From contig JBKAGE010000078.1 in assembly GCA_046290225.1 (NCBI GenBank), positions 448,001-512,000 on the forward strand: 64,000 nt of DNA. The letters run 5' to 3'. The stretch is from Bradymonadia bacterium. GTDB taxonomy: Bacteria > Myxococcota_A > Bradymonadia > UBA7976 > UBA1532. How positions within the stretch are numbered: the first letter of the stretch is position 1; every line of letters begins with the position of its first letter. Below are positions 60,816 to 63,069 of the stretch, one piece after another. The notes beneath the pieces are model-generated. The model saw only the letters and a program-made list of their open reading frames with translations, had not been told where the DNA came from and did no database searches. The translations under genes were made by a program, and so were the position numbers.

Positions 60816-61532
60816 TCAGATGCCCAACATCTGAATGGCGAGGCCACTCGACGCGATGGCGAGGCCCGCGAGGGTGTTGGCGTGGCGCTCCATGGACTTG
60901 AGAGGGGCGAAGGACAACCCCACGGCCCCCACGGCCACCGCAGCCACCATGGTGAGGATGGTCACCACGCTGAAGACCGCCGCCACCGAGATCACACCGG
61001 ACCAGTCGTGGGCATAGGCCGGCGCCATGAACATCGGGATCAACGCCTCACAGGGGCCGAGCACGAACAAGATGAACAGCGCCCACCGGGTCATGCCCTT
61101 GCGATCCCCTGCCCCATGGGCGTGGGCGTGGTTGCCCTGGTGGTTGTGATCGTGATGATGCAGCGTGCCGTCCTCGTGGGCGTGCACGTGACTGTGATGC
61201 TTGCCCTTCGCCGCCCGCCACGCCGAGATGGCGGCATAGATCAGCCCGAAGGCGATGAGGCCCCAGGCGGCGATGGACCCTCGAAAGCCCTCGATGATCT
61301 CCAACCGCTCCACGGCGACGCCGAGGCCCACCCCGATGAGGCCGAGGGCCACAGAGCCCACCACGTGGCCCACGCCACACAATGCGGTAAAGCCGAGGGT
61401 CTTGCGCAGGCTCCAGTTTCGAGCCTTGCCGATCAAGATGAAGGGCAGATAGTGGTCCACGCCGATGAGGGTGTGCATGAAGGCCACCGAGGCGGCGGCC
61501 CAGAGAAGCACTGTGAGTGTGGGATCGTTCAT
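60816..61532 (-). CDS. Nickel transporter (UreH/SodT-like) with His-rich loop
   Basis: HTLIGVDH (Hx4-5DH), GVGH, HHSHVHAH..HHHDHNH, GPCEAL, multiple TM helices; in the sodN operon. Confidence 0.85.
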   Translation of the reverse strand: MNDPTLTVLLWAAASVAFMHTLIGVDHYLPFILIGKARNWSLRKTLGFTALCGVGHVVGSVALGLIGVGLGVAVERLEIIEGFRGSIAAWGLIAFGLIYAAISAWRAAKGKHHSHVHAHEDGTLHHHDHNHQGNHAHAHGAGDRKGMTRWALFILFVLGPCEALIPMFMAPAYAHDWSGVISVAAVFSVVTILTMVAAVAVGAVGLSFAPLKSMERHANTLAGLAIASSGLAIQMLGI

Positions 61533-61834
61533 GAAGGCCCATCCAGGGGGCCCAGGATCCGACCGAGGATCAGGGCCCGTGGGAGCGCCCCGAAGCCCCT
61601 GCTGTCAGAGCTCTCGAGGCGGTTGTCGCCGACGACGAACACATGGCCCTCGTCGGTGAGGTGGGAGACGCGCTTGACGATGCGCACCCCGCTTTTGAAG
61701 GGGTGCTTTGCCAGGACCACGTCGCCGGGGCAAGGGGGCGAGTCGCTGTAGACGCCTTCAGCGACGAGCAACACGTCGCCGTCGCTGAAGGTGGGGTACA
61801 TGCTGTCACCGTCGATGCGGACGGCGAGGTGCCT
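61529..61834 (-). CDS. sodX: NiSOD maturation protease (S26 family); coding frame starts directly after the sodN stop and has no canonical start before the catalytic Ser
   Basis: VRIDGDSMYPTF..GDVV..HP..IVKRV..GDN..SSDSRGFG; the first ATG (61801) is one codon after the catalytic Ser. Confidence 0.88.
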   Translation of the reverse strand, partial: RHLAVRIDGDSMYPTFSDGDVLLVAEGVYSDSPPCPGDVVLAKHPFKSGVRIVKRVSHLTDEGHVFVVGDNRLESSDSRGFGALPRALILGRILGPLDGPS

Positions 61835-62287
61835 TCAGGAGGCGGTGTACCATGCCACGTCGCGGCCCTTGGACTTCCAGAAGATCTCGTGGATCTCCTT
61901 GATGGCGTCCATGAGCTCACCGGCGTGCTCCACGCTCACCTCGACCTTGCACGAAGAGCAGAGCTTCGCGGCCTTCCAGAAGACCTCGTGCAGGTTGGGG
62001 AAGTCGGCGAGATGCTTGGGCTTGAAGTAATCGGTCCAGAGCACGAGCAGCTCTTCCTTGGCGAGGTGAGCCTGCTCTTCCTTGATGGCCACGAACCGGG
62101 CGAAGGTGTTGTGGTAGGCCACCATGGCGGCCTTGTTGCCGGCATCGGGGACCTCTAGGGCCACAAGCTTCTTGGTCATCGAGACCACGGCCTCCGCGGC
62201 GATGCGGGCGCTGGCGGGATCGTACACGCCGCAGGGTCCATCACAATGTGCCTCGGCCACCATCACGTCGTCGATGTGAGTCTTCAC
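61835..62287 (-). CDS. sodN: Nickel superoxide dismutase precursor with 13-aa leader
   Basis: GAGGA RBS before GTG 62287; AEA/HCDGPCGVYDP Ni-hook; LWTDYFK. Confidence 0.96.
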   Translation of the reverse strand: MKTHIDDVMVAEAHCDGPCGVYDPASARIAAEAVVSMTKKLVALEVPDAGNKAAMVAYHNTFARFVAIKEEQAHLAKEELLVLWTDYFKPKHLADFPNLHEVFWKAAKLCSSCKVEVSVEHAGELMDAIKEIHEIFWKSKGRDVAWYTAS

Positions 62288-62487: not shown

Positions 62488-63069
62488 TCAGGGGCAGCCG
62501 CCGGGCGTCCACTGAAGCGTTTTGGCCAGAGCGGCCTCGAGCTCAGGGTCGTCGGGGGGGATCTCGTCGTAAGTGCGCCAGACGAGGCGGCCCTGCTGAT
62601 CGAAGAGCATGCTCGCCGGCAACGAGGACACAGCCATCTTCGCCGCCTCGGTCCCCTTCGGATCACCCACGATCAGGAACGGCAGCTTCAAGCGCTGTTT
62701 CACCAACATCGCCTCTGAGGCCTGCGCGTCCAGGCTGATGGCCACCACCTCGAAGCCCTCACGGTGATGCCTTCGGTACAGCTCAGCCAGCACAGGCAAC
62801 TCTTTGACACAGGGCGCGCACCAGCTCGCCCAGAAGTTCACCAGGACCGCCTTGCCTCTCATCTTCGACAGAGACCAGTGGCCCTCGGGGCCCTTGATGG
62901 GCCCTGCGTCACCGAGCTTGGTACCCTTGAGATCCACGCCGACGGACCCGATGGCGCCCGGAAAGGCCGGCGCGGCCAGATCTGCAGGGTTCTGTGTGGT
63001 GGTCGCGGGGGGGTTCGCTGCGACAGCACCTGAGATACACAAGGTCAGGGGGATGAGCAGACGGTGCAT
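62488..63069 (-). CDS. TlpA/ResA-family thiol:disulfide oxidoreductase
   Basis: Signal peptide; LVNFWASWCAPCVKELP. Confidence 0.92.
   Translation of the reverse strand: MHRLLIPLTLCISGAVAANPPATTTQNPADLAAPAFPGAIGSVGVDLKGTKLGDAGPIKGPEGHWSLSKMRGKAVLVNFWASWCAPCVKELPVLAELYRRHHREGFEVVAISLDAQASEAMLVKQRLKLPFLIVGDPKGTEAAKMAVSSLPASMLFDQQGRLVWRTYDEIPPDDPELEAALAKTLQWTPGGCP

Follow-up and report, generated by a model that had tools for sequence, protein, structure and literature searches.

The window, the whole stretch of 64,000 nucleotides analysed here, originates from a marine bacterium whose genome (G000) is 99.4% complete. On the minus strand it carries a nickel superoxide dismutase (NiSOD) operon, in which the precursor gene sodN is followed by sodX (Table 1). 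The upstream frame scores 195.8 bits against TIGR02753 (cut-off 90); behind a leader of 13 residues the mature protein begins at 62248 with the Ni-hook His-Cys-Asp (HCDGPCGVYDP), and it aligns from His14 to the solved Streptomyces NiSOD 1q0d. With a score over the cut-off and the His-Cys-x-x-Pro-Cys-Gly-x-Tyr hook past the leader, SodN is assigned to the NiSOD family. The downstream stop-to-stop frame scores 70.6 bits against TIGR02754 (cut-off 63.25) and is assigned to SodX by this score, its Ser-Lys dyad, its signal-peptidase fold and the neighbouring sodN. At the junction, the minus strand reads YTAS*RHLAVRIDGDSM. The sodX frame continues in the sodN frame directly past the TGA, the catalytic Ser codon follows after exactly 30 nt and no ATG, GTG or TTG lies in between; an ordinary separate sodX start upstream of the first strand is thus absent in the window. 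This arrangement, pointed out in a preliminary description of the DNA, was confirmed in sequence and frame. If the TGA is read as Trp, the resulting fusion has a length of 252 residues. The His-rich membrane protein encoded behind sodX has no Pfam or NCBIfam match and is likely a nickel transporter, as judged from its His-rich loop and context; a gene of this type behind sodX was not found in the ORF lists of the three related loci described below.

Table 1. Features of the sodN-sodX junction and its surroundings, with positions in the window.
Feature	Position	Strand	Remarks
His-rich membrane protein, 238 aa	60816..61532	-	ATG overlaps sodX stop (ATGA)
sodX, start-less frame of 101 codons for an S26 Ser-Lys peptidase	61529..61834	-	TIGR02754
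Second, stronger predicted hairpin	61755..61791	-	L211 and L212 have predicted stems at about this place
Met12 ATG, first ATG of the sodX frame	61799..61801	-	A start here gives a product without the catalytic Ser
Catalytic Ser codon, Ser11	61802..61804	-	G-x-S-M motif; partner Lys54 at 61675-61673
Ten codons RHLAVRIDGD, from stop to catalytic Ser	61805..61834	-	First beta strand at residues 2-6 (model)
8-bp hairpin (predicted)	61806..61827	-	Starts 7 nt past the stop; also covers the GGTGA ribosome-binding-like motif of Met12
sodN, Ni superoxide dismutase precursor	61835..62287	-	150 aa from GTG 62287; TIGR02753, PF09055
sodN TGA, candidate readthrough codon, then AGG	61835..61837	-	Read from the sequence
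Out-of-frame ATG within sodN	61851..61853	-	Judged incidental
TlpA/ResA-like thioredoxin gene	62488-63069	-	Directly upstream of sodN

Other sodN-sodX junctions were collected by genome searches, one genome-contig scan and one metagenome-contig scan. The 152 loci with both genes yielded 139 distinct junctions including that of the window, and two added loci (L277 and L281) brought the survey to 141; 17 sodN loci with no sodX inside 600 nt were excluded. The exact layout, in which a start-less sodX follows a TGA in the same frame and has its Ser 30 nt on, occurs in 4/141 junctions: the window (L001), a metagenome contig (L011) and two loci of one cyanobacterial family (L211 in genome G562 and L212 in genome G643). 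A survey of relatives for a conserved in-frame UGA and spacing had been suggested in the preliminary description, and three further junctions indeed share them, a recurrence (3/140 other junctions) that exceeds chance. An ATG, GTG or TTG is available for sodX in 130/141 junctions. In the remaining 11, none of these lies six or more codons ahead of the Ser, and four of these 11 have one exact layout. Among the 139 junctions, sodN ends in TAG (52), TAA (44) or TGA (43), sodX lies in the same frame (43), the +1 frame (32) or the -1 frame (64), and the distance from stop to Ser takes 94 different values. SodX identity among the four members is 49-70%, and the differences at 58-79% of fourfold sites mean that silent sites are nearly saturated. 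Hence a conserved in-frame stop, a conserved coding sequence behind it and the lack of an own start coincide in 4/141 junctions and about three lineages.

Further traits set the four apart. TGA ends sodN in both cyanobacterial members, compared to 2/60 other cyanobacterial junctions, for which the labels were given by hand (record titles and an order search). The codon past the stop is purine-G-purine in 4/4 members and in 8/135 other junctions, and the Arg-rich N-terminal extension present in 115/125 other SodX proteins is found in 0/4. All four have short SodN leaders, while the equal length of their SodN tails is uninformative, being shared by 118/129. SodX of G562 matches a named record from Leptolyngbya sp. 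PCC 7376, P0130, at 99%. No further members were detected in 113 genomes of the window's class and 401 of its phylum, in 301 genomes of the Planctomycetota phylum and 221 of the Acidobacteriota phylum, in classes of 6, 17, 18, 182 and 107 genomes, or in viral contigs and plasmids. Apart from the four, a locus of a separate SodX lineage (L170 in genome G061) has a TGA, the same frame and 99 nt to the Ser, with no canonical or near-cognate start; this may be a further readthrough site that arose independently, or a one-base error, and a GTG overlaps its stop in the -1 frame. Two short SodX (L013 and L014) lie in the +1 frame behind TAG, and their possible starts are only a TTG inside sodN or CTG/ATA.

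In a quick tree of 140 rows, the four members were joined with ten database proteins (SH-aLRT 98). Eight of these ten are called from Met12; they were not counted as members, because P0299, which is also called from Met12, has a CTG-overlap layout at its locus (L277). A careful tree of 40 rows, which was trimmed to start at Met12 and included L277 while L174 was dropped by pattern, split the members into three supported subgroups, all within a polytomy that also contains ordinary and CTG-overlap genes; a grouping of all four did not reach rejection (p-AU 0.37). Therefore, the layout is either one old arrangement that was kept through heavy divergence, or it had up to three origins. The four junctions are counted as about three independent lineages, with L211 and L212 as one family. 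The SodN leaders of L211 and L212 are short and polar, like that of the window and unlike those of other cyanobacterial SodN, which suggests that the cassette was acquired sideways.

The codons between stop and Ser appear to be needed for the protease. In the SodX alignment, for which the search pattern prescribed the Ser and the Met, position 5 is F, V, L or Y in 115/129 proteins and position 7 is V or I in 127/129. A model built on 90 sequences (pLDDT 91.8) shows a strand at residues 2-6 (block pLDDT 94), and type I signal peptidases are its top matches by fold (4wvh, E 6e-4, TM 0.78). In the E. coli signal peptidase, the corresponding strand borders the substrate pocket. Across the 90 aligned sequences, some of which begin past the Ser, Lys54 is invariant and Ser11 nearly so; we take these two to be the catalytic residues, as established for S26 peptidases. 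Codon 3 is Leu in all four members (CTC, CTT, CTC, CTC) and codon 5 is Val (GTC, GTC, GTT, GTT). Since these two codons have changed only silently and the core strand is encoded by codons 2-6, translation must enter at or before about codon 4-5, a range in which the four have no near-cognate start codon in common. The start-less layout also explains why database starts disagree: they were put in three places, all within or after the first strand, at codon 7 (P0159, P0130), codon 4 (P0163) or Met12 (P0122, P0164, P0165), and starts at codon 7 or Met12 remove the strand or the nucleophile. Only one sodX over the cut-off was found per genome, that of the window being the sole such copy in G000. 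Among the families searched, Fe/Mn SOD was found in none of G000, G562 and G643, and Cu/Zn SOD was absent from G000 and G643 but present in G562; NiSOD is thus the only SOD found in G000. Because later starts skip a conserved core strand, no second sodX was found and NiSOD is the sole SOD found in G000, the protease should be made.

We consider low-level readthrough of the UGA, probably as Trp, leading to a 252-residue SodN-SodX fusion, the best explanation of the junction, with a probability of just under 0.6. Readthrough fits because it requires exactly what is conserved, namely the same frame, open codons and the leakiest stop. It was proposed in the preliminary description and is the best-supported reading, with a layout that recurs across phyla; a non-canonical start, named there as an alternative, is still a serious rival because related sodX genes lack canonical starts. 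Most ribosomes would stop at the UGA and release the 150-residue SodN precursor, and on a small share of ribosomes an ordinary near-cognate tRNA would decode the UGA, probably as Trp. Trp is the main amino acid inserted at UGA in E. coli and Cys the next, according to the available part of one reporter study (PMC11126739). The few fusions would be the only carriers of the protease domain, so that the Ser-Lys protease would be present at a fixed low ratio, and it would remove the 13-residue SodN leader and thereby free His1. The purine-rich codon past the UGA and the 3' structure might tune the leak. Speculatively, the SodN part could stand in for the Arg-rich/hydrophobic N-terminal extension of SodX and keep the protease near its substrate; such a takeover of positioning may be considered because the four have short leaders and no Arg-rich stretch. 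One might further speculate that the fusion enters the SodN hexamer. Taken together, a retrovirus-like chromosomal UGA readthrough, programmed by sequence and structure, might fuse a metalloenzyme to its maturase, fix the protease:substrate ratio, let the fusion co-assemble with SodN precursors, have spread sideways between phyla as a cassette and possibly tie NiSOD activation to the cell state via a growth-dependent UGA leak; as a whole, this extended picture is tentative and rather possible than probable.

A natural fusion of the two proteins, which had been named as a check of readthrough, was not found in a clean, stop-free form among the sequences searched. The best 120 of 5582 matches were all 142-163 aa long, one of 21 longer SodN proteins had both domains (P0155), and among the best 150 of 4699 representatives P0193 and P0186 spanned both parts. 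These three were rejected as fusions, as they contain scrambled stretches like indel artefacts, P0155 and P0193 being singletons. The missing stop-free fusion fits a need for excess unfused SodN, and a separate restart predicts the same. Folding of the fusion without an alignment reached a pLDDT of 34.7.

The main rival to readthrough is a coupled restart after the UGA in the sodX frame at a non-canonical codon (codon 3 CTC/CTT, codon 4 or codon 5 GTC/GTT), with TGA-RGR as ribosome-binding site and little free protease as product; we regard it as unlikely, yet as one to be taken seriously. Six other sodX genes lack ATG, GTG and TTG but contain an in-frame CTG (L174, L179, L180, L242, L269 and L277), among them the close relative L277, and for this reason weak starts look normal for sodX. 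The CTG of L174, L179, L180, L269 and L277 overlaps the TGA, whereas the stop of L242 is TAG. Initiation at CTG coupled to sodN is likely in these six genes, and weak starts may often keep sodX low. Moreover, minimal SodX proteins beginning at the codon-3 position exist (P0123, P0124 and L015), where the start triplet of P0123/P0124 could be Leu TTG. Among the four members, the only near-cognate start near the stop is ATT at codon 4 of L211, the start of database record P0163, and L212 alone has a GAGGA across the stop (-5.6 to -6.0 kcal/mol). However, none of CTG, ATT, ATC or ATA occurs early enough in L001, L011 and L212. In addition, pairing with the anti-Shine-Dalgarno (anti-SD) sequence is weak in three of the four (-1.0 to -3.3 kcal/mol), and a restart needs neither the same frame, nor exactly 30 nt, nor TGA over TAA, all of which the four have kept. 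As far as the available text of bioRxiv 10.1101/063800 goes, initiation at non-canonical codons in E. coli amounts to 0.01-3% of that at AUG; the near-cognate ones reached 0.1-3% at low copy, but five other tested codons gave only 0.01-0.1% at low copy with a strong site.

The 8-bp hairpin noticed before is indeed the predicted fold behind the UGA (-12.5 kcal/mol, z -2.5, 5/200 shuffles as good). Its spacing of 7 nt, earlier called typical of recoding, falls in the 7-9 nt 3' of the stop given for structures stimulating viral readthrough in the accessible part of PMC3159437. The register is kept in only two of the four members. In L001 and L011, all 8/8 pairs form in register with two compensatory changes between them, compared to 6/8 in L211, 4/8 in L212 and 8/8 in 1/125 other junctions. 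Synonymous recoding gave P values of 0.037 and 0.002 for L001 and L011, 0.25 for L211 and 0.78 for L212, where a different hairpin from +1 is predicted (-9.5 kcal/mol, P 0.017). Covariation, suggested earlier as a check, was not significant over the four, as 68/500 shuffles reached the observed level, and RNAalifold on the four prefers another structure. The hairpin is so far not supported as a universal stimulator of readthrough. In E. coli reporters, readthrough did not correlate with downstream folding energy and G, not A, was favoured at +4, as stated in the available part of PMC11126739. Among six codons tested, Met12 had the strongest anti-SD pairing at all four junctions (-6.9 to -7.8 kcal/mol, calculated with a generic anti-SD because the assembly yielded no 16S tail), and its ribosome-binding-like site is buried by the hairpin (unpaired probability 0.02-0.30). 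Therefore, silencing of the dead-end Met12 start is an equally good role for the hairpin as stimulation, and under readthrough it might also hold this start down.

Several variants of decoding were discarded. Global reassignment of UGA is contradicted by TGA being the main stop of G000, where it ends 1836/2286 long high-GC3 frames, a special suppressor by the ordinary 5-bp anticodon stem of the main tRNA-Trp, and stop-hopping by the different codons on either side of the stop. As a side observation, G000 encodes a second tRNA-Trp(CCA) at C77:152519-152589; the gene ends in CCA, its D-arm is shortened and its anticodon stem contains an A-A mismatch. Altered tRNA stems can increase UGA reading, according to the part of PMC13092985 available. 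Contigs C14, C20, C35, C37 and C42 of G000 contain 96 tRNA calls in several arrays, including a tRNA with a CTA anticodon at C14:27995-28067. The sequencing runs share only 6-11% of words, two of six yielded nothing that aligned, and they are no evidence of expression or habitat.

A second rival assumes that sodX has lost its start and is decaying, in which case either a different protease would mature SodN or the Met12 product would be the only one made. Met12 does have the best ribosome-binding-like site, and 4/7 changed sodX codons among those listed between contigs of ~96% identity are non-synonymous. Still, frames are open and catalytic motifs kept despite near-saturated silent divergence, there is neither a second sodX nor, in G000 and G643, another SOD, and the Met12 product lacks the nucleophile, which makes decay improbable. 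Equally, we give little credit to a start in the -1 frame, at ATG 61853 or at a CTG/TTG overlapping the stop, with a subsequent +1 shift into sodX. All four junctions have C/T-TGA at the usual overlap position, L001, L011 and L211 have an ATG, TTG or GTG 19 nt ahead of the stop's end, and CCT-C follows soon after in L001 and L211. The upstream triplet, however, is a by-product of a conserved Trp codon (ATG, GTG or TTG in 53/106 such junctions), a TAG in that frame directly precedes the CTG in L212, and no slippery site is common to all four; the shift from ATG 61853, previously listed as an alternative, is thereby largely ruled out.

A one-base assembly error masking a normal overlap from ATG 61853 was also considered before, since the one independent contig over the stop extends only 6 nt beyond it and has two differences near its ends; but this 321-nt contig from another sample is ~96% identical with 0 gaps over 61523-61843, which adds little, a second assembly in the protein collection, possibly of the same sample, also gives a Met12 call (P0122), and three unrelated assemblies have the identical layout, and therefore the error is ruled out for practical purposes. 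Insertion of selenocysteine, with the hairpin behind the UGA as SECIS, can likewise be set aside, because in the 99.4% complete G000 selA was not found, selB and selD gave nothing over the cut-off and no true tRNA-Sec was detected, and selA is absent in G562 and G643 too. An aragorn 'SeC' call was rejected since it lies inside a long open frame, presumably NhaA, and the one tRNA-Sec match over the cut-off sits at a tRNA-Ser(TGA).

No report of readthrough or of a missing start at the sodN-sodX junction was found in the literature searched, which leaves most subscription papers outside. The available text of three reviews (PMC7026636, PMC5009743 and PMC7918605) contains no such case, and the word 'superoxide' is absent from that of PMC5009743 and PMC7918605. 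As far as the available part of PMC1914089 states, readthrough with canonical amino acids is quite rare in prokaryotic genes, and the genome-wide screen described there filtered out adjacent gene pairs, the class to which the sodN-sodX case belongs. In the accessible portion of a survey supplement, Leptolyngbya sp. PCC 7376 has a NiSOD and its maturation protease is scored absent (PMC8346466), although named SodX records do exist for this strain. Some genomes listed as 'sodN without sodX' may be of the same kind as the four.

In summary, the junction is real and conserved, and on the present comparative evidence it is probably a site of recoding; the operon itself is ordinary, and the candidate readthrough layout is new to the literature searched, which mostly excludes subscription papers. 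If readthrough is true, the conserved joining of an enzyme to its maturase would offer a clear example from cellular genes. If instead a restart is true, it would still be an unusual conserved initiation without a near-cognate start codon. The window shares with the ordinary sodN-sodX operon of Streptomyces, Prochlorococcus and other cyanobacteria the same two families over curated cut-offs in the same order, and SodX is required for cutting the SodN precursor (PMC8346466, available part). However, ordinary sodX genes mostly have their own start at variable frame and spacing, whereas the four have no start, a fixed frame, 30 nt and TGA. They also differ from the termination-reinitiation at overlapping CTG codons (L174, L179, L180, L269, L277), where sodX lies in the -1 frame and not in the sodN frame. 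In Moloney murine leukaemia virus, the protease is encoded immediately past the gag stop and cleaves Gag. In its gag-pol and in the UGA readthrough of alphaviruses and furoviruses, an in-frame stop likewise separates an abundant product from a scarce enzyme (PMC3159437, accessible part). Those cases concern viral RNA on eukaryotic ribosomes and are experimental, while here a bacterial chromosomal operon with a short, partly conserved hairpin is known from sequence alone. The readthrough codon of the phage Qbeta coat gene is UGA, read as Trp. Qbeta offers functional readthrough on bacterial ribosomes with a minor extended product (PMC3159437, same part), but it extends a phage capsid protein, whereas here a cellular enzyme would be fused to its own maturase. 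Finally, the likely chemistry, which needs no special machinery, is that by which E. coli reads UGA as Trp at a basal level; in the available text of PMC11126739 this readthrough is described as error-level, whereas at the sodN-sodX junction the layout is conserved and readthrough would be the sole route to the protein.
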